Source of the DNA: Candidatus Latescibacterota bacterium
GTDB lineage: Bacteria > Latescibacterota > UBA2968 > SICM01
DNA length: 64,000 nt
Assembly (NCBI GenBank): GCA_965217865.1
Contig: CBDCJO010000002.1
Coordinates: 2,592,001 to 2,656,000, forward strand
Direction: 5' to 3'
In this document: one piece after another, positions 45,701-59,725 of the stretch
Position numbering within the stretch: position 1 is the stretch's first letter
Layout of the letters: each line of letters starts with the position of its first letter
Notes under the pieces: generated by a model
What the model saw: the letters and a program-made list of their open reading frames with translations, nothing else
What the model was told of the DNA's origin: nothing
Database searches by the model: none
Translations under genes and position numbers: made by a program

Positions 45701-46885
45701 ATGATATTTGAAAGAAATAAGCCACATGTCAATGTTGGGACCATTGGACACGTAGGCCACGGAAAGACAATGCTAACGGCTGCGATTACCAAGGTTCTGG
45801 CTTTGGCTGGGCTTGCTGAGTTTATCCCTCCTGATGCTCTAGACAAGGCCCCCGAGGAGAGGGAACGCAGGCTCACAATCAAGGCCAGACATGTAGAGTA
45901 CGAAACAGAGATACACCACTATGCTCACGTGGACTGCCCGGGCCATGTTGACTACGTCAAAAACATGATTAATGGTACTGCACAGATGGATGGCGCTATC
46001 CTGGTAGTTAGTGCAGTGGATGGTCCGATGCCTCAGACACAAGAATATATTCTGCTCGCCAGGCAAGTCAATGTGCCTTCCATTATCGTCTATATCAACA
46101 AAACTGATATGGTGGAGGATCCTGACCAGATAGATCTAATAGAACTTGAGACAAGGGATCTTTTAAGCCAATACGGCTTTCCTGGAGATGAAGTTCCGGT
46201 TGTTCGGGGGTCATCATTAAAGGCACTTGAGTACCATGGCCCTGGAGCTGACGAAGCTAAGTGCATCTGGGAGCTGCTCAATGCCATGGATGAATACATT
46301 CCGGTGCCTAAGCGGGATTTCGACGAGGACTTCTTGATGCCGGTTGAGGATGTGTTCACAATTACGGGACGCGGGACAGTTGGCACAGGCCGAATCGAGC
46401 GAGGCGTGGTAAAAATAGGTGATGAGGTGGAGATCATTGGTTTCAGAGAGTCGCGTAAGGCAGTTGTTAAGGGAGTCGAAATGTTCAATAAGATCCTAGA
46501 TAAGGGGATGGCGGGTGACAATGCAGGTCTTTACTTGGGGGGTATAAAGAAGGAGAATTTGACGCGCGGAATGGTAATTGCAAAACCAGGTTCCATTGAG
46601 GCGCACAGTAAGTTTTGCTGTGAAGTCTATGTGTTAACTGAAAAAGAGGGAGGACGAAGCACACCCTTCTCTTCCACATATCGTCCCCAGTTCTATTTTC
46701 GAACGACAGATGTTACCGGGAGTTTTCAACTACCAAACGGGATCGAAAAAGCGATGCCGGGTGAAAAGATGACCATGACAGTCAAGTTGGCATCCCGAAT
46801 CGCTTTGGAGCCGGAACTTAGATTCGCTGTTCGAGAGGGGGGCCTGACTATCGGTGCGGGTGTGGTTACACAAATCCTGGAGTAA
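45701..46885 (+). CDS. tuf: Elongation factor Tu, divergent solitary paralog
   Basis: Full-length 394 aa, collinear with EF-Tu ([41 protein letters not shown]) but with non-canonical G1 and G2 motifs. Confidence 0.93.
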
Positions 46886-46927: not shown

Positions 46928-47934
46928 CTAGCGCATAACAGCAGGCTCAGATGCGCAGAGCTCAGATCATTGCCTTCAGTGGTCAAGGACTGCGTGTTCA
47001 GGAGATTGCTGCCAATCTCGAGATGAACGAGGAGTATCTCCGGGAACTGATTCGTAACTTCAATGACGAGGGCTTTGATGCACTTCGCCAGAAATCTCAA
47101 TCCGGTCGGCCACGCAGTTTGACAGAAGAAGAGGAGTCCCTGATCGCAGAAATCGCGACAGCGCCTCCCCAGGCCTTTAGCCGTCCTTTCAACCAGTGGT
47201 CCCTGAGGAAGCTGAGGGATTTTCTGGTTGAAAAGAGACTGATTCAGCCGGTCAGTCACAACGTCATCCGTCGCGTCCTGAAGAATCGAAAGATTACTTA
47301 TCAGCGAACCCGGACCTGGAAGCGATCCAACGATCCGGCATACGACGCTAAAAAAAACGCATCTAAGCGCTCTACAAGAAGGCCCCGCAAAGGTGCTCGG
47401 TAATCTGCTTCGACGAATTCGGACCCATCCAGGTCAAACCACAACACGGTAACGCTTGGGCGCCACAGAAAAGCCCTGTCAGACTCCGTGCCGCCTACCG
47501 CCGGTTTCAAGGCGTGAGCCACTTTTTAGCGGCGTATGATGTTCATCAAGACCGCCTGTGGATGCATCAGAAAAAGCGCAAACGATGGCAGGAGGTCCTC
47601 CGTTTTCTCAAATCGATTCGACGGCGATACCCGAAGGACAGACGCCTGTACATTGTCCTGGACAATATGAGAACGCACAGCAAGGCCGAAGTTGTGGACT
47701 GGTGGCAAAAGAACAATCTCAAACTGGTATTCACGGCAACAAATGCATCCTGGATGAACCGCATCGAATGCCACTTCGCACCTGCCAAACAATTCGTCCT
47801 CAATAACAGTGATCATCCCGACCATAGATCCATTGGTCAGGCCATGCAAGACTACATAAGGTGGCGAAACAAAAACGCCAAGAATAAAAAAATCTTGAAA
47901 CCTCAAAACACAGTACGGGTTTTGTAACAGCCCA
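46928..47934 (+). mobile_element. IS630-family element remnant (5'-truncated, split transposase)
   Basis: HTH ORF 46951-47403 (RRAQII, GRP, WSLRKL); A8C slippery site at 47350-47358; the -1 frame has CFDEFGP...IVLDN...WMNRIE but an in-frame TAA just after the shift. Confidence 0.82.
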
Positions 47935-47938
47935 CTAG

Positions 47939-49071
47939 TCCTAAAATAAGCGAATAGGCTTGTTGAGCGGTGTGTTATACAAGATTTCGGAGCATTTCAG
48001 ACTTGTGACTTGGTGGAGATGATGTCTGGGCTGTTTTTGTGATTGTTTCGGCATGCGATTGTCTAATTAACTGAGTTTGCGGACGTGTTTTAGCCGGGGT
48101 GGACGGACTTGTCCCTGTGATGTTACGACGACAGGTGCTGACATGGCAGTCAGGCCGGTTTGAGCCATCTGATTCTGTTCCAGGCCGGGAAGAAGTCAGT
48201 CATCCACCGGTTGTAGCCCAAGACACGATAGATGATCTGTCTTCCCCGGGTCACGATCTGGCAAGGGATCCAGATCAGATTCTGGAGGAAGGCGCGAAAC
48301 TTCATTCTCAGAAGTTGATCGCGACGCTCACGCTTTCGGATCATCAACGCGAACCAGGCTTTGAGGTTCCACGCCAGGGCGGTCATGACCATGTAAGCCC
48401 AGTTGCTCATCAGGTTGTCGACGGGCATCCGCATGGCGTTGACCCCGTTCTTGAGTTGTTCAATCACGTTTTCCTGATCGCACCGTCGATTGGCCAGCCT
48501 CACGATTTCCGCGGCCGTAAGATCTTTTCGGGTGGTAATGTAGAAGAAACAGCGCTTGTCATCGAACAGGGCGTTTTCGCCGCGTTCGACGCTCAGGTTC
48601 TTTTCGAGGATCACGAGTCGACAGGTCTTCTTGCATCGAGCAGGACGATACGAAACCCCGGCAACACGTTCACTGGCAAGTCGGATGTTTTTGAAGCCGC
48701 GCTCCCGGATGATCCGGGCTTTCACGTTCTCGCGTTTCTGTCTCTGGGAGGTCTTGACCTGGTATTTGGGTTGTCGTTCAAAGGGCTCCCAATCGCTCTG
48801 TGACAGGGATTTGGCGATCTTGACCAATCCCCGGTAAGCATCCATGCCGAAGACGAAGTCGACCTTTTCCGACCAACGATCGAAGTGCCGGGTGAGTGAG
48901 AAGCCGGTGTCTCCGCGCAGGCAGATGCGTTTGGCGAAAGGGGCGACCAGCGCGATGGCGCGATCGATCCACTTTACGGCACCGTCGTGGCTGGGCACAT
49001 TGCCGGGTCGATTCACAAGAAACAACACCTCCCTGGTGTTCGCCAGAGAGACCACGAGAGGATGGTATCCC
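47939..49071 (-). mobile_element. IS1380 partial copy (3' part only)
   Basis: Near-identical to 38033-39165; breaks off inside the transposase at 49071. Confidence 0.9.
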
Positions 49072-49570
49072 TGCTGTGAGCGGCATGGTGAGTGAAGAGT
49101 TTGGTTGTCCGCAGGCGATGATCGATATCGCATCGATCCCGAACATCGGCGCCTTCAAGGACGCTTCGGGAAACTACGGATGGCACCGGGATATCGTACG
49201 CGGGCTCGACGGCCCGGATGGGCTTGCCGCTGTCATGGGCAGCGACGGTATGGGATATCACTACTGGGGCCATCATTACGGATCCCGTTGTTATCTTACC
49301 GGTCTCGGTAACGTCTGGCCGAAGATCGAAGTCGAATTCTACGACAAACTCGCTTCCGGGGATCAAACGGGCGCGCTGGATATCGTGAACACCTACGAGC
49401 TTGACTATCTTAAAACCACGAAGGCAACCGGCAAATACTGGTCCTGTCTCAAGTTCTTCCTCGACGAACTGGGGCTTCCCGGTGGCCCCATGCGTCCACC
49501 GTTGCTGGACTGTACACAGGAGGACAAGAAGCTCCTGCTGGCCATGGCGAAAAGCACGGGACTGATGTAG
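49072..49570 (+). pseudogene. DapA-family protein, C-terminal half
   Basis: IPNIGAFKDASG (Schiff-base Lys) and GPMRPPL; 5' part replaced by IS1380 sequence. Confidence 0.75.
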
Positions 49571-53145: not shown

Positions 53146-53335
53146 AAACTCCGACCTCTGCCTTTTGCTTTCCTGCTACTGCCACTTGTTACTGCTACTG
53201 CTTCCCTCGACCTCCGACCTCTGACATCTGACACCCGTCCCGGTTTCCGTCTCACGTTTCACGGTTTTTCTTTCCCTGCTCTTCGATCTTCAATCTTCAA
53301 TTTCCTCTGCCCCCCGACCTCTGACCTCTTACCTC
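53146..53335. repeat. Short tandem repeat mosaic between convergent genes
   Basis: CTCCGACCTCTGAC, CTGCTACTG, TCTCACG and TCTTCAA units. Confidence 0.8.
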
Positions 53336-56300
53336 TTAACAGGCATCCCCACAAATAGCCTGCTGAAGTCATCAACGAGTGGATCCTCCTCTTCCCCATC
53401 GGCAGCTCGCGCAAAGACGATCCCCGGGCGCTTCGCACGTCGCGCCCTTGCTAGCACGCCGTAACCCTTTGGCGCGCTTATTTCTCGCACTTCCTCAGCT
53501 TTCTTGCGTATCTCGAGTTGGACCCGCGCAAGCCCATTTCTCGCCCCGAAAACACGGGCAAAAACCTCTTCAGGCGTCAGGCCATCCCGCCAACCGTTGG
53601 GGATCGGAACAAGCTTTCCTTCCACGTCCGGTACGACCCCGCTGCCGCCCACGTATTGGCGAAGCTGGTGGACGCTACCGCGCGCCCCGCTTTTCGACAT
53701 CAGGATCACCTGTCCTATATTGTTGTCATCATACGCGCGAAAGCTCATCAACCGAGCCTCAACCTCCCCGGCAAAAGCCAGCCACTGATCAGGGTCGTTC
53801 TCCTCCGGTTGGGGTGGGAGATCCAAATCCTCCCCAATGAACGGGCTCACAGATGCACCCATCCCCTTTGCGACCTCGAAACCGAGCCGCATCAGCCGTT
53901 CGGAGGTTTCGAGGGCCTTTTGGCCCCCCTCGTGTTCAACGATGCGTTGCAGGGCGTTAATAAGGGTCCACCTCGTGATGATTCCGTCTTTTCTCCCCAC
54001 CTCGGCGCCCACGAGCTTCCCGATTTCCCCCCATCCTCTGGTGGAAAGACTCAACCAGGCAAGCCCGTACACCGCATCCATTCGGGGTGGAAGCAGATGG
54101 ATCAAATCGGGATCACGTTCAAGATGTGCGGCAACGGAAAGACGATCCCTCGCTTCCTCCTGCCCGGCCTGGGTGATCGGCAGGAAGACAGCGGCCTGAT
54201 CCCCGTCAAAGTCGGCGTTCATCATCTCGCATGCCAGAGGATGGAGGCGAATCACCCGGTCCGGATGCCGAACGGGACGAAATGCGATGAAGGACGTGGG
54301 CGAAAAGGTCGGTGCACGATATACGACCACCCACGAACGTTCCATAATCTTGTCGAGTGCTTTGCTCGCACGTTGACTGCGTTCACGCACCTCCTTCTCT
54401 CCTCCGAGCTCACGGATGACCAAAGGCCCGAATAAAGTCCAGGCGATCTCCTCAGCAAGCCCCACCTGATCGATACGCAGGTCTGGTCCTGGAACGATCA
54501 CCGTGCGTCCGCTGAAAGAAAACCGGCTGGCAAATTGCACGTGAGCGGGTGTGCGGAGGAAGCTCAAAGTGTCGCCAACGCCAAATTGCAAGTGGGAGGG
54601 AGTGAGAAGCACCTCGAAAAGGTCATTTACCCGGGCTTCGAGCTGGCCAACCGCATTCTCAGCCAGTGGATCCGGGGCCTGACTGTCGAGCATTCGTTCC
54701 AACCGCGCGTTGGCCTCCACCAGCGTCTTGAACTCAGGCAAATCCTTTAGCTCCCCCACCTCGGCCAGCGTGTGCTGACGAAGCCAGGGGTGCGGCAGCG
54801 GGCGCACCAGTTTGAGCGTCGCATCCTGAGGCCGTTCAAATCGGAACCTCAGCTTCCCATCCTGGAATTCAGCCAGGATGCCTGCGGCCGTCAGGCGCCG
54901 CACCAGGTCGGCGAATTTCGGAGCCGGGGGTCCAGCCTGCTCCACCACTCCGGTTGCAAGGCGCGTCGCGAGCCTCTCCGCATCGTCCCGGTCAGTCGCA
55001 AGCGTGTTGAAAACCTCCCGGACGGTCTCAAAGGCCTTCGCCTCACGCAGGGCCTGGTACTCGATTTCACCCACTCCTTGACACCTGCTTTTGTCCACCG
55101 AGGCGTGGATCTTGTTCCTGACGATGTGAAGGGTGCGCCCCCAGTAGACCCACCCCACCGTGCTCGGACGCTGAAGCTTCCGACCCTTGAGGGTGAGTGT
55201 CTCCATCCCGTCCTTTGTGAAACCCGCTTTCGTGAGGCGCGCGCGAATTTCGGCTTCATCCGGCGCCTTATACGGGGACACTACAGCCGGTTTCCCCTCG
55301 GCCTTCGCAATGCGGCCCATCACCGCCTCTCGAACCTGGCCAAAGTTCATCCGTGATGGGAGGCCGCAAACACTATAGATAAGTTCCACAGGCCTGCCGT
55401 CCGTCAGATGCGGCATCTCATCATCGGGAAGGATGCAGGACACCACCCCCTTGGCCCCGTGTCGGTTGCTTAGCTTGTCGCCCGGCTCAACGGGGTGGGG
55501 GAAGTTAAGTCTTTGGGCGCACGACTCGCTGATCACGACGGCATCTTCAAAAGTATTTGCATCCCAGGAGATGAAAGCGGTCAGAAGGCTGCGTCCACAC
55601 CAGAAGTCGGGTGCATCGGGTTCCGCACCGGTTTGAACATCAGCGGGTTCCGGATCCGGAGGGATCATCCACTGCCGCATCATGTTAGCCCCCATCAGTA
55701 GCCGGTTCGCATCGCTGTGTTCGATAAAGGGGATCATGGAGGCCGAGAGACCGAGGGCCGCCTCAGGACGATCATCGACAACGACCAGCCTCCCGTCGCG
55801 GATCTCGGCGCCATTTGCGATGGTAAGGATGCGGCCAATGTTAGGCCCCTCCGGCGTCTCAAAGGGGCACGTGCGGCCAAAGTGTCCGGGTGCCAGCACG
55901 TTTTCCCTGTCAGGTATGGACAGTCGTCGGAGAAACGTACGCCTGGCCAACCAGTTTGAACGATAGACAGGACCTTTCCCTTCAAGCTCATAGGCATTTA
56001 GATCAAAGAACTCCCGCACCCACGCGTCCAGAAGAAGCCACGTTCGGGCAAGCGGAGCGTCCCAGTGAAGGTTTTCTGGGGCTTCCCCCAGATGCGCCGC
56101 GATGAAGTCGTAGGCCTGTTCCCCGACGGAACGGATCTCAGCAGTCTCGAGCCTATCGTGAGAAGCGACAGGGGGCACCACCTGGCTTTCCCCATCGATC
56201 TCGAAGACCCCATCCGGATCCGGCTGCGGGATATCTTTGTAATCAATCTCTACCTCACTTTCTTTTCCTTGAAGAACGACCTTCACGTCACAGGTATAAG

Positions 56301-56424
56301 TGCCCGTCGACTTAACACGGTATCCAGCCAGAGGCAGCCGCTCACCCAGAAGTTGCGGCAGCCGTTTTTGAACAAACAGGTCCCACGACGCTTTATGCCA
56401 CGGGGCAGCATCGTTAGCGCTCAT
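53329..56424 (-). CDS. Miniature single-chain RNA polymerase beta-beta' fusion protein (1031 aa)
   Basis: RpoB blocks in order: GRTCPFETPEGPNIG, IPFIEHSDANRLLMGANMMRQ, FEDA, GDKLSNRHGAKG, PSRMNFGQ. RpoC blocks follow: SGRTVIVPGP, RAPT, NADFDGDQ, SGARGS, GARNGLA. Confidence 0.92.
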   Translation of the reverse strand: MSANDAAPWHKASWDLFVQKRLPQLLGERLPLAGYRVKSTGTYTCDVKVVLQGKESEVEIDYKDIPQPDPDGVFEIDGESQVVPPVASHDRLETAEIRSVGEQAYDFIAAHLGEAPENLHWDAPLARTWLLLDAWVREFFDLNAYELEGKGPVYRSNWLARRTFLRRLSIPDRENVLAPGHFGRTCPFETPEGPNIGRILTIANGAEIRDGRLVVVDDRPEAALGLSASMIPFIEHSDANRLLMGANMMRQWMIPPDPEPADVQTGAEPDAPDFWCGRSLLTAFISWDANTFEDAVVISESCAQRLNFPHPVEPGDKLSNRHGAKGVVSCILPDDEMPHLTDGRPVELIYSVCGLPSRMNFGQVREAVMGRIAKAEGKPAVVSPYKAPDEAEIRARLTKAGFTKDGMETLTLKGRKLQRPSTVGWVYWGRTLHIVRNKIHASVDKSRCQGVGEIEYQALREAKAFETVREVFNTLATDRDDAERLATRLATGVVEQAGPPAPKFADLVRRLTAAGILAEFQDGKLRFRFERPQDATLKLVRPLPHPWLRQHTLAEVGELKDLPEFKTLVEANARLERMLDSQAPDPLAENAVGQLEARVNDLFEVLLTPSHLQFGVGDTLSFLRTPAHVQFASRFSFSGRTVIVPGPDLRIDQVGLAEEIAWTLFGPLVIRELGGEKEVRERSQRASKALDKIMERSWVVVYRAPTFSPTSFIAFRPVRHPDRVIRLHPLACEMMNADFDGDQAAVFLPITQAGQEEARDRLSVAAHLERDPDLIHLLPPRMDAVYGLAWLSLSTRGWGEIGKLVGAEVGRKDGIITRWTLINALQRIVEHEGGQKALETSERLMRLGFEVAKGMGASVSPFIGEDLDLPPQPEENDPDQWLAFAGEVEARLMSFRAYDDNNIGQVILMSKSGARGSVHQLRQYVGGSGVVPDVEGKLVPIPNGWRDGLTPEEVFARVFGARNGLARVQLEIRKKAEEVREISAPKGYGVLARARRAKRPGIVFARAADGEEEDPLVDDFSRLFVGMPVKR

Positions 56425-57023
56425 TCCATCTCCTCCGATCCGGTTTCAAGGTCCTGCCATTCCTGCGCGATTCGCCTTCGTCCGTGATACAGGCGAGACT
56501 TGACGGTGCCCTCCGGAATGCCGAGCCTCTCAGCGACCTCTCGGACATCCATCTCCGCGTCGTAAATCATACGGAAGATATCACGCTTATCTTCTGGTAA
56601 TTCATCGATAAATTGCCGGAGCAGCTTGCCTTGCTCGGTCAGTTCCAGGAGGGCGTCCGGACCGAGGGTTGCGGCGTCTATCATCCAGCCGGGAGCTGAG
56701 CTTTCCTCATCATCGCTGGAATTCGGCAGGATTTCAAGGGGTTGCTCCCGTCGCCGCTGAACAGAGCGAAGGTGGTTGAAGGCCAGGTTGCTCGCGATGC
56801 GGAACAACCAGGCCCGAAAAGGGCCCTGATCGTTCCACTGCTCCGCACGGTTCCATACCCGCAGGAAAACCTCCTGCACCAGGTCCTCTGCCGCAGCCTT
56901 GTCCCGAACAAGCCGGGACAGATGTGAGAAGATCGCCTCGCTGTAGCGGTTGTACAGTTCCCTGAACGCGAACGCATCGCGCTTCAGAATCCGCTCTACG
57001 AGATCTCTATCGGCCTGCTCCAT
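56421..57023 (-). CDS. ECF sigma-70 factor, translationally coupled to the mini-RNAP gene
   Basis: AAEDLVQEVFLRVW, FRAWLFRIA.N, LGIPEGTVKSRL; ATGA stop/start overlap at 56421-56424. Confidence 0.95.
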   Translation of the reverse strand: MEQADRDLVERILKRDAFAFRELYNRYSEAIFSHLSRLVRDKAAAEDLVQEVFLRVWNRAEQWNDQGPFRAWLFRIASNLAFNHLRSVQRRREQPLEILPNSSDDEESSAPGWMIDAATLGPDALLELTEQGKLLRQFIDELPEDKRDIFRMIYDAEMDVREVAERLGIPEGTVKSRLYHGRRRIAQEWQDLETGSEEME

Positions 57024-57041
57024 GAGGGCCCTCTATGGAAA

Positions 57042-57069
57042 AGGACACCGACGCAGTTCCTGAGGTTCA
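57042..57069 (-). promoter_or_regulatory. Putative ECF promoter of the sigma/mini-RNAP operon
   Basis: TGAACC-N16-TGTCCT, about 19 bp upstream of the ATG. Confidence 0.5.
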
Positions 57070-57245: not shown

Positions 57246-57698
57246 CTATTCAGCAAAAAGTTCTGGAATATGTTCTTTTGTTAGGAATGTCCGGAGCTCA
57301 GGATCAACTTTGTCTATGCCCTTGTAAGTTATCCATGAAAAAGAAAAAAGTGCTCCAGTTTCAGCGCCCACGGTTCCAATCCACTCCCAGGTGTCAGGCA
57401 ACTCCGTTTCGGGAGTGAAAAGGTAGTCTGTTCGGTCTACATCCGCCTGGATGAACGGCTTGAAGTATCTTGTCGTGCCGATCTTTCGGATAAGCTGTAG
57501 ATTCTTGATCCCGGACTCCTCATAGGTTTCCCGGTGCGCGGCTTGAAGAGGCGTCTCATTGTCTTCAACGTTTCCTCCGGGAAGACGGTAAAACGCGTAG
57601 CCCACCGATTTAAGTTCTAGAACCAGCAACTGACATCTCCTATCATCACCATATCTGACGATTAACGCAAAGGCCTTCTGAACAAGGGGATGATTCAC
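57246..57698 (-). CDS. NUDIX hydrolase
   Basis: Nudix box GGNVEDNETPLQAAHRETYEESGI. Confidence 0.92.
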   Translation of the reverse strand: MNHPLVQKAFALIVRYGDDRRCQLLVLELKSVGYAFYRLPGGNVEDNETPLQAAHRETYEESGIKNLQLIRKIGTTRYFKPFIQADVDRTDYLFTPETELPDTWEWIGTVGAETGALFSFSWITYKGIDKVDPELRTFLTKEHIPELFAE

Positions 57699-57780
57699 AG
57701 GAGATGGAGGTAATCGTTTTGGGTTATCGGTGTGGGTGCGGACTGAATCAATAAAATAAGCGGTAATTTTGACACAGAAA

Positions 57781-57818
57781 GAAAAATCACCCCACCAACG
57801 TTGGGGGGGGTGATTCTC
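57781..57818. terminator. Hairpin downstream of the ankyrin gene
   Basis: AATCACCCC...GGGGTGATT stem, T-rich on the minus-strand 3' side. Confidence 0.5.
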
Positions 57819-57892
57819 CGGGATCGATCGGCAACACGATTTTACACGCAGTTTGTGTGGGCTACTCCGCCATCAGTATTGGCTTGTTTTTC

Positions 57893-59516
57893 TCAAGATT
57901 TTGCGCCCGCCTGCCGAAGCATCTTCTCAAGTTCGTTGTGTCCACGTTTCTTGGCCCAGGCCAGAGGCGTTGCCCATGGCCGGTCGTCCGGAAGGTTGGT
58001 TTTTGCCCCACGTCCTAAAAGATGCTCAACCATGTCCTTTATGCCGCATCGGGCTGCCCACCCCAAAGGCGTTGAGCAGTATTCCTCGTCCCTGGCATTG
58101 ATATCTGCCCCGAATTCAAGAAAAAGGTCCGCTAGACCGATTCGTGTCTCATCAACGTTGCCATGTCTGGCGCAAAGGTCATGAAGGGGGGTCACCTGCT
58201 GCCAGTCCGGAAGATTCGGGTCCATTCCATGTTCCAATAACACACGTGTCATGTCAGGATTTGACCAGAGGTAGGTCCGACATCCAGTCACCACATCGGG
58301 GACACGAACGCCCCGCTTCAGAAGCATGTGCAGCATGTCCCAGTCACCTTTCTTAACAACCGCCGCAAATGCTCCACCACATCCCGACTTGCCGGCCCTC
58401 TCCGGATCTGAATCAGCCATGACAGCCATCGCGTCGAAATTACCCTCCCATACGTATCCGAAGGCATCCTGTCTTCCCCCATATCGATACATCAAATTTC
58501 TCATTTCCGTGGTTTTTGCCTGAGAGATACAGGTCCCACAAGAGTCTATATAGCTGTTGGGGGTCTGCCCCCTTTTCAAGCAGCATTTCTGCTATCTCCA
58601 GGTTGTTACAGTCTGATGCAGCGAGCAGAGCGGCGCCCTTCGGTGCGTATCGCCCTTCATGGAGTGAAGGGTCTGCACCGTGCTCCAGGAGCAATTTGGC
58701 AATTTCTGTATGGCCGTGCTCAACCGCGGACGACAGAGGCCGCTTCCCACAAGGCTGAGCATCGTTAGCCAGGGCGGGATTCTCCTTCAGGAGTACTCTT
58801 ACTCTTTCCAGATCACCGCAAACCGCCGCGACCGTGATTGAGTAACTGGCCCCTTTTGCCAGCAGATAGCCCACCATTTTCGGGTTATACCGCTTCATAA
58901 AGAAGGAACTCCCCCAAATCGCGAGATCGATCGGCTGGAATTTTTCTGCAACATACGTGTTCCCTGATGCCTGAACGGCGTCCAGTTCGGCCCCGTGATC
59001 AATCAGTAGACCGACAATGTCTATTCGTCCTGTCTTCACTGCAAGATGCAGCGGAGTACTCCCTTCTGCGTCGCGCAAGCCGACGACTGAGGGATCCTCC
59101 TGGATCAAGTCCTGTACCTGCTCCAGGTCGCAGGAAGACACCGCCTCGTGTATCCGGTGGGTTTTCTTAAGAGGCCCCCGCATTGATTCGATATATTTGG
59201 CCACTTCTTCGTGGCCACGATCGCGGGCTACGACCGTCAAGTCCTCTCCCCCGTGTCTTATAAATGTCGGGTCGGCTCCAGCCGCTATCAGAGTTTTGAC
59301 TGCTTCGAGATGCCCTTCTCGGACGGCGAAATGAATCGGTCGCGTGTACCAATATTCCGCACGCACGAGATTGGGATCGCGCTTCAAGAGTCGACGGATC
59401 TGCTCGACATCGCCGGCAATCGCCGCGCAAAGCATCTCCCAGATATCCGATCCGCGACAAGACCAGGATTGGATTAACCCTTCAGACTCTAACTCCCACG
59501 GTTTGATGATACGCAT
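57893..59516 (-). pseudogene. Ankyrin repeat protein with a frameshift in the G5 tract at 58559-58563 (possibly a sequencing error)
   Basis: Many TPLH/GAD ankyrin repeats; GADP joins NSYIDS if one base is removed. Confidence 0.85.
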
Positions 59517-59614
59517 CACTCTGTCCGTAAATTCTGTTTTCCGAGAAGGTCGGTTACCGCTCAGATTGTCTCGTACCATTTCAACGGATTGTCTAGGGCG
59601 CTCCCTGAGCTGTC

Positions 59615-59725
59615 TTTCCGATCTCCGACCTCTATCTTTGCTCTCCTGCAACTGCTACCTGCTACTGCTACTGCTACTGTTTTTCCCGACCTCTGACCTC
59701 CGAACCCTGGCCACTGCCTTTTCCC
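59615..59725. repeat. Short tandem repeat mosaic overlapping the 3' end of the methyltransferase gene
   Basis: (CTACTG)n and CCGACCTCTGACCTCCG. Confidence 0.75.

Follow-up and report, generated by a model that had tools for sequence, protein, structure and literature searches.

To our knowledge, the trigger loop is regarded as an essential and universal part of two-barrel RNA polymerases (RNAPs), and bacteria are generally said to have one RNA polymerase. A stretch of 64,000 nucleotides from Candidatus Latescibacterota bacterium (GenBank assembly GCA_965217865.1, contig CBDCJO010000002.1, positions 2,592,001 to 2,656,000 of the forward strand; hereafter the window, in whose numbering coordinates are given unless another locus is named) carries a gene for a single-chain protein of RNAP ancestry, here called the mini-RNAP, which has kept its catalytic centre and lost the trigger loop. 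Judging from its members' sequences and predicted fold, we consider the family to which it belongs to be real, conserved and surprising.

Several described systems resemble the mini-RNAP in part. The enzyme of the yeast virus-like element pGKL2 (ORF6p plus ORF7p) is described as a beta::beta' fusion of about 980 (982) amino acids (aa) without detectable trigger, lid or rudder (PMC2919709); like the mini-RNAP it is reported to lack most of the clamp, and it differs in having a small second subunit that carries two C-terminal beta' regions (PMC6211774). In the mini-RNAP the terminal beta' block lies in cis, the origin is bacterial, the partner is a sigma factor of the extracytoplasmic function (ECF) type, and no second subunit was seen, either with a hidden Markov model (HMM) on 46 loci and the host genome or as a third conserved open reading frame (ORF) of at least 45 aa. 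One of the two regions on the yeast second subunit is presumably the trigger region, going by a figure legend. Single chains of about 100 kDa with both double-psi barrels are also found in YonO, P23-45 gp64/gp96, phi14:2 gp66 and QDE-1. Enzymes of the YonO type are of ancient origin, can hardly be aligned and come for the most part from viruses; those with solved structures, as treated in PMC10770324, keep an N-terminal trigger loop. YonO itself is reported to have lower fidelity and no hydrolysis (PMC5467207). The mini-RNAP, by contrast, is a chromosomal and plain deletion derivative of RpoBC, with 642 alignable columns at 34-37% identity and only five residues from bridge helix to terminal block; on its sequence, it is not a YonO-type protein.

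Engineered RNAPs without the trigger loop share with the mini-RNAP an open active centre with intact metal and nucleoside triphosphate (NTP) sites. In the bacterial enzyme this deletion is reported to slow nucleotide addition by four orders of magnitude with NTP binding unchanged, and to leave discrimination poor, nearly abolishing its kinetic component (PMC2874521). Such mutants lack about 17 residues of an otherwise complete enzyme, whereas the mini-RNAP represents a natural, selected deletion of 510 residues with a rebuilt bridge helix. Compared with bacterial RpoB/RpoC, of which it is a direct homologue with the same double-psi barrels, Asp triad, F-loop, bridge helix and clamp helices, it is one chain of 1031 aa rather than 2749; it is without trigger loop, jaw, second Zn site, flap, lobe, lid, rudder and switch 3, as well as without the beta' Zn finger, the clamp head, R275 and E295, and it coexists with a normal rpoBC. 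The operon has its own parallel, given that ECF sigma factors usually autoregulate and are co-encoded with regulators (PMC7826278): as in sigma/anti-sigma operons, an ECF sigma gene, autoregulated here as judged from a promoter motif, is followed by one translationally coupled gene, the difference being that this downstream gene encodes an RNAP core derivative. No description of such a mini-RNAP was found in the literature searched, which included the ECF reclassification paper and left most subscription journals outside.

A single-chain RpoBC derivative and its family

53329 to 56424, minus strand: mini-RNAP gene, 1031 aa, with a beta core at about residues 1-523 and a beta' core at about residues 524-1031

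Searches of Pfam, NCBIfam and the PDB assign the N-terminal half of the protein to RNA polymerase beta and the C-terminal half to beta', and RNAP domains are the only ones found with Pfam. The AlphaFold2 model has a predicted local distance difference test score (pLDDT) of 94.1 and a predicted template modelling score (pTM) of 0.92. Its beta half matches 8i23_C with Z 30.0 and an rmsd (root-mean-square deviation) of 2.5 over 506 aligned residues. The structural alignments take in 506 of the 516 residues compared with beta and about 450 of the 504 compared with beta', so that no foreign domain has been added and none is present that might stand in for the trigger loop. The match of the beta' half has an rmsd of about 10 and low confidence at the tail, and for this reason its end points alone were used. 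Two insertions, one of about 17 residues (613-629; 54535-54590, minus strand) and one of about 6 (149-154; 55963-55980, minus strand), are absent from nearly all relatives, the longer being the sole low-confidence part of the model.

Identity to sampled normal RpoBC sequences ranges from 33.6 to 37.2% over the shared columns, and the RpoBC of the same genome is, at 34.3%, no closer than other normal enzymes. This host also carries a normal rpoB-rpoC pair, whose trigger loop is intact, and a separate rpoC-type match was present in 35 of the 36 carrier genomes searched. Relatives of the mini-RNAP are numerous (1249 matches among 7997 scored candidates), and the best 120, referred to below as close relatives, are all 1002-1106 aa long and at least 50% identical. 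The 44 genome loci with a mini-RNAP belong to Chloroflexota (12), Poribacteria (9), Latescibacterota (9), Planctomycetota (5) and Armatimonadota (5), with the remainder in Gemmatimonadota, Myxococcota and two records without a phylum label; two clusters in the ESM Atlas (73 and 135 members, under generic names) match as well. In trees from which poorly covered rows had been dropped (65 of 76 rows retained in one, 55 rows in another), the family forms one long-stemmed clade and the long branches all cluster. Given this clustering, and support labels that rerooting had displaced, neither a donor nor an order of events is claimed.

An assembly artefact was considered and rejected, as contigs from two runs cross the region and show neither indel nor joint within the gene, and the deletion junctions common to the relatives likewise speak against it. 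No close member occurs among 80 listed viral stretches (of 168 confirmed) or among 10 listed plasmid records (of 67), and a viral or plasmid origin is unsupported by these listed sequences. Elsewhere in the same genome lies a 3'-only second copy of the mini-gene (L002, G000:C2:2438878-2439585), which covers residues 795-1030 at 87% identity and is without a sigma gene.

The missing trigger loop and the catalytic centre

53479 to 53574, minus strand: bridge helix, residues 951-982, predicted continuous, with the N-terminal part conserved and the centre replaced
53464 to 53478, minus strand: linker, residues 983-987 (5 residues), in place of about 510 residues of normal beta' (trigger loop, jaw, second Zn site)
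53344 to 53463, minus strand: terminal beta' block, residues 988-1027, equivalent to beta' 1316-1355 (switch 1 / switch 5 region) by ungapped profile scan
55873 to 55926, minus strand: fork loop 2 region, residues 167-184, 11 residues shorter by alignment

A first-pass annotation, made from the DNA alone, had proposed that the trigger loop, the jaw and the second Zn site are missing, and each of these absences was borne out. The span from the bridge-helix Arg to the terminal Gly (R962 to G1026, equivalent to R780 and G1354) comprises 65 residues in the mini-RNAP and 575 in E. coli, a loss of about 510 residues that takes in the trigger loop, the jaw and the second Zn site; the equivalent span is 61-68 residues in all 120 close relatives and 52-89 in all 135 distant relatives that cover both ends. 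MRTFH was found in none of the 120 close relatives and [LM]RTFH, QLT[ML]R and GEPxTQ in none of 150 distant representatives, while an HMM built from 71 seeds for trigger helix 1 and the beginning of the loop gave a best E of 2.4 across 271 family rows. A looser pattern matched 4/120 and 5/38 rows, at positions not located. The motif GRTFH, present in seven close relatives, was rejected as a relocated trigger loop, since it falls at the position of beta H1237 and is the strand that bears this residue. Trigger helices hidden within the last 50 residues were rejected as well, as windows of the trigger region reached HH-align probabilities of at most 0.7% against 21-28% for the C-terminal window, and in the AlphaFold2 model no spare helices are seen past the bridge helix that could serve as a structural equivalent. 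A trigger-loop HMM recovered no loop-like gene from the 46 mini-RNAP loci (best E 1.3) and rpoC alone from the host genome (E 1.6e-18, the next being E 2). By these motif, profile and length comparisons, we consider the absence of the trigger loop confirmed across the whole mini-RNAP family.

The motif GARNGLA occupies residues 960-966 (53527-53547), and IVFARAA starts 35 residues on, at 1002, much as the annotation had it; the terminal block, which it had placed there, begins earlier, at about residue 988. Of the 35 residues the bridge helix takes 16, the linker 5 and the terminal block 14, which leaves no room for a loop. The bridge helix had been called altered, and this holds for its sequence but not for its length: it aligns without gaps to beta' 758-800, retains R780, G782 and L783 with K789, T790, G794 and Y795 replaced, and is predicted by AlphaFold2 as a single full-length helix (951-982), followed by short helices at 990-996, 1000-1009 and 1019-1025 (pLDDT 85-98 over 951-1030). 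The R798 position is Arg in 102/120 close as opposed to 42/133 distant relatives. For the terminal block, the ungapped scan sets residues 988-1027 against beta' 1316 with a score of 19.4 (z 5.6), whereas the best trigger-helix window scores -3.1 (z 3.4). Homology by HH-align is modest, with 21-28% on the C-terminal window as above and 1.6% on whole beta', and the structural alignment of the beta'-half model, at its rmsd of about 10, ends at E. coli beta' 1359; the assignment stands because register, structure and position agree despite the modest sequence homology. Three arginines of the block are near-invariant among distant relatives (R993 131/135, R996 117/134, R1022 130/135) and are family-specific, with no E. 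coli counterpart in the register used. The proposed shortening of fork loop 2 was also recovered, the stretch between the equivalents of R529 and R557 comprising 18 residues in 110 of the 120 close relatives and 24-30 in the other 10, compared with 29 in E. coli.

54199 to 54219, minus strand: NADFDGD catalytic motif, residues 736-742, Asp triad conserved
55489 to 55512, minus strand: beta flap deletion junction (826-1057 reduced to about 5 residues) by profile alignment

The Asp triad is intact in 141/144 distant and 112/120 close relatives, D460, D462 and D464 of beta' being kept in 142, 142 and 141 of the 144. Against a median column conservation of 46% among distant relatives, the beta residues R678 (74/75), Q688 (71/75), D814 (73/79), R1106 (81/82), K1065 (72/80), K1073 (75/81) and H1237 (82/91) are kept, as are R425 (116/130) and R731 (127/138) of beta'. 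We take these residues, kept at about 85-99% on the beta side, to have the metal, NTP and RNA-end roles assigned to them. Conservation is relaxed at the N458 position, with Asn in 98, Asp in 29, Glu in 8 and Gln in 4 of 144 distant relatives, and the numbering of this position is presumably equivalent to that of an Asn studied in the loop-deleted enzyme. Such relaxation is expected if the loop is gone, because that Asn is reported to be without effect on 3'-dNTP discrimination once the loop has been deleted (PMC2874521). The S531 position of the rifamycin pocket is variable.

Profile alignment to E. coli-anchored RpoB/RpoC indicates that the lobe (about beta 148-445), the flap (826-1057) and switch 3 have been lost, together with the Zn finger and clamp head of beta', the lid, the rudder, the first rim helix and some of the dock, the names and limits of these modules being partly our assumption. 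The modules left are the hybrid cleft, both double-psi barrels, the clamp helices, the F-loop and the bridge helix.

Further reduced polymerases were encountered alongside the family. Two Latescibacterota loci (L065:635-6574 and L059:2-3610, both plus strand) hold a second fused RNAP paralogue, a single alpha-beta-beta' chain of 1979 aa in which NADFDGD, the second Zn site and a trigger loop of altered form are retained but the Zn finger, lid and R275 are gone. It has the HPW junction motif in common with the mini-RNAP family and is a possible intermediate, its position in the tree being unreliable. In a Poribacteria genome, a beta-beta' fusion of 1700 aa (L067:4381-9483, plus strand) has no NADFDGD and a degenerate loop, and stands after two sigma54-type-looking activators and ahead of an acidic ORF of 308 aa; in the same genome, a different contig (L139) has a 1015-aa frame with NADFDGD. 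The ESM Atlas contains additional unnamed fused beta-beta' clusters of 1330-1787 aa, with and without Rpb1_5, and the spectrum of reduced single-chain RNAPs seems to be a broader one.

The ECF sigma partner and its promoter

56421 to 57023, minus strand: gene for the ECF sigma factor (200 aa), sharing four bases with the start of the mini-RNAP gene
57044 to 57069, minus strand: predicted autoregulatory ECF promoter TGAAC-N16-GTGTC, with the predicted +1 at 57034
54607 to 54738, minus strand: clamp helices, residues 563-606, with R278, R281, L282 and I291 kept or similar and R275 and E295 mostly Ala

An ECF sigma gene lies upstream of the mini-RNAP on the same strand at 43 of the 44 genome loci, the exception beginning at a contig edge, and in four loci an additional gene stands between the two; no third conserved gene (ORFs of at least 45 aa) was found around the mini-RNAP across these loci. 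Among the 80 sigma matches listed from a metagenome scan, both close sigmas (2/2) are followed by a mini-RNAP gene and none of the 78 distant ECFs is. The pattern TGAAC-N16-GTGTC, which was derived from the same 44 upstream regions in which it was then counted, precedes the sigma gene in 39 of them with a spacer of 16 in 38 of the 39, as compared with a mean of 0.2 and a maximum of 3 in shuffles; the locus L141 repeats it independently, and a pyrimidine-purine bias is evident at -1/+1 of the predicted promoter.

Outside the operon the motif occurs at close to chance frequency, and a wider regulon was not shown. In the host genome 3 sites reach at least 21 bits versus 2 and 1 in two shuffles; at 19 bits the genome has 15 sites versus 7 and 1, an excess due in part to repeated identical sites. 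Across 36 genomes there are 17 matches outside the operon versus 10 for the control, and of the 10 among these 17 that were inspected, 8 lie within long ORFs, one (L107) is promoter-like and one (L118) is intergenic and unclear. Two related Poribacteria have a second TGAAC-N16-GTGTC site similar to the promoter of the operon (L107, at G035:C1:36389, and G030:C1:1777631), and the L107 site, which stands before a membrane-protein-like ORF, is a possible further target of the sigma.

The sigma interface of the E. coli enzyme is described as involving beta' R275, R278, R281, L282, L285, I291, E295 and M298 together with the flap tip (PMC10216364). In the mini-RNAP family the R275 position is Arg in 0/110 members and the E295 position Glu in 0/113; with these two residues never kept and the flap deleted, both sigma anchors of the mini-RNAP would be weakened. 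On the side of the sigma, D47 and Q50, which we take to be the contact residues of region 2.2, are conserved in 42/42. The simplest reading is that the sigma would drive its operon with the host polymerase.

Directly upstream of the sigma gene, a NUDIX hydrolase and two ankyrin-repeat genes (57246-59651, minus strand) are found that are not conserved in other loci. Farther off lies an EF-Tu-like ORF outside a ribosomal operon (45701-46885, plus strand), which we take to belong to the EF-Tu family and whose P-loop reads GHVGHGKT, Asp presumably being the usual residue at the position concerned. Two further regions (46951-47927, plus strand, in two frames, and 48150-49133, minus strand) we assume from their appearance to be transposase-like.

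Possible activities of the mini-RNAP

Our favoured reading, held tentatively with a probability of about 0.45, is that the mini-RNAP would be a live but slow, low-fidelity transferase acting on pre-paired 3' ends and induced by its sigma through the host polymerase. Such a permanently open nucleotidyl transferase would add one or a few nucleotides to a 3' end paired on a short template or, in the other direction, remove nucleotides from a paired 3' end with pyrophosphate, and would not synthesize mRNA. Hybrids formed beforehand, or single strands with a primer, would serve as substrates, lodged in the hybrid cleft that has been kept. With the lobe, jaw, clamp head, flap, lid, rudder and switch 3 lost, a double-stranded template would probably not be opened, held or tracked, and the loop-deletion data, combined with the loss of the modules that grip DNA and guide RNA to its exit, suggest short products. 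The sigma and the host polymerase would transcribe the two-gene operon, with the mini enzyme as the output of the circuit; the mini protein may damp the sigma in addition, as the operon encodes no other regulator. The host's retention of rpoBC speaks for this reading, as does the invariance of D47 and Q50 in the sigma while the mini-RNAP has lost R275, E295 and the flap. Also in its favour are catalytic residues conserved well beyond the median column, the relaxed N458 position, and the finding of neither a replacement domain nor a loop-like gene in the loci or, rpoC apart, in the genome.

The slow or non-processive activity first proposed remains the expected default from the loop-deletion data and the lost modules, although, with YonO and pGKL2 in view, a lack of loop homology is no proof of slowness. 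Two of the products suggested with it fit poorly. De novo synthesis of short oligonucleotides or primers is at odds with the archaeal RNAP, in which the loop is reported to be essential up to the completion of a full hybrid (PMC3737540). As for RNA cleavage, bacterial enzymes depend on the loop for it and YonO shows none, though the same archaeal source describes it as independent of the loop. We infer that the emphasis shifts from de novo primers to primed addition or pyrophosphorolysis, and regulation of the sigma by the mini protein may be added to the earlier list.

Several points weigh against the slow transferase. YonO, for which no loop homology by sequence is reported, is nevertheless described as fast and highly processive (PMC5467207), the yeast pGKL2 enzyme is reported to transcribe despite lacking most of the clamp (PMC6211774), and PolD is described as being without even the bridge helix (PMC6355029). 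The triad is changed in 8/120 close relatives (7 D460N, 1 D462A). About half of the sigma-contact residues of the clamp helices are retained, which leaves room for a holoenzyme, and a loop partner in trans would escape the HMM if it were very divergent and unlinked. The neighbourhood, having no third conserved gene, gives no hint of a substrate or pathway, and an enzyme slowed 10,000-fold is hard to select for unless the rate itself matters.

The retained clamp helices, with the positions of R278, R281, L282 and I291, might instead serve a decoy core that acts as anti-sigma and sensor, holding the sigma or sitting with it on the promoter without escape. Release would follow when the active centre is occupied by an NTP, by an RNA end or hybrid, or by an RNAP-targeting inhibitor that the decoy would also soak up, and catalysis would be incidental or a slow timer. 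This would explain the logic of the operon, a positive loop without another regulator or another clear output, given that the mini-RNAP follows immediately on an autoregulated sigma, where an ECF regulator would normally be found, without any further conserved gene, and that no clear regulon emerges past the operon (3 sites of at least 21 bits against 2 and 1; 17 matches against 10). We nonetheless find it doubtful, as both sigma anchors are weakened (R275 0/110, E295 0/113, flap deleted), as 1030 residues with every catalytic residue would be excessive for a pure anti-sigma, and as the S531 position of the rifamycin pocket varies. The same doubt applies to the fuller proposal of a signalling device, in which a stripped RNAP core would restrain its own ECF sigma, sense nucleotide or RNA-end status by slow catalysis and time the release; if true, it would be a new form of signal transduction built from a transcription machine. 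The transferase and the decoy or sensor can both be true together.

Ranking behind these, and in our view unlikely, is a processive private polymerase that would use its own sigma at TGAAC-N16-GTGTC promoters and have regained speed through R993, R996 and R1022, through the rebuilt bridge helix, or through a small unlinked protein supplying trigger helices in trans. Precedents are described in YonO (PMC5467207), in the division of the pGKL2 enzyme between ORF6p and ORF7p (PMC2919709, PMC6211774) and in PolD, which manages without a bridge helix (PMC6355029), and the complete set of catalytic residues, the strict linkage to the sigma, the fixed 16-base spacer and the -1/+1 bias are all consistent with it. 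However, the HMM finds no loop-bearing gene in the loci or the genome besides rpoC, and the terminal beta' block lies in cis, unlike in ORF6p, with the scaffolding around the loop also deleted. There is moreover no flap for sigma4, and downstream DNA would meet neither lobe nor jaw nor clamp head; the viral two-subunit enzymes compared here retain RTFH, and the solved single-chain RNAPs are described as keeping the start of the loop (PMC10770324). Far less probable than any of these is a functionless product, whether a decaying rpoBC duplicate or an assembly artefact. Some decay is visible, with broken frames at two of the 44 loci (L036, L051), a short frame at L042, a broken sigma at L017 and the stray 3' fragment of the mini-gene elsewhere in the same genome, but equal length and equal deletion junctions across seven named phyla, a triad intact in 141/144, a conserved promoter, a confident fold and the lack of a joint in independent runs largely refute it.

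Beyond the slow transferase that we favour, the family shows that selection has kept a complete catalytic centre and deleted the loop in mostly uncultured bacteria from at least seven phyla, whose genomes thereby hold a second RpoBC-derived protein with its own sigma. As a single chain of 114 kDa, the mini-RNAP should express easily, and it would open two long-standing questions to direct test, namely the capabilities of the core without the loop (and what preceded the loop) and the nature of the minimal RNAP. Should it prove fast, it would represent a new catalytic route; if slow, a new use of RNAP chemistry; and if a trap for its sigma, a new class of anti-sigma.

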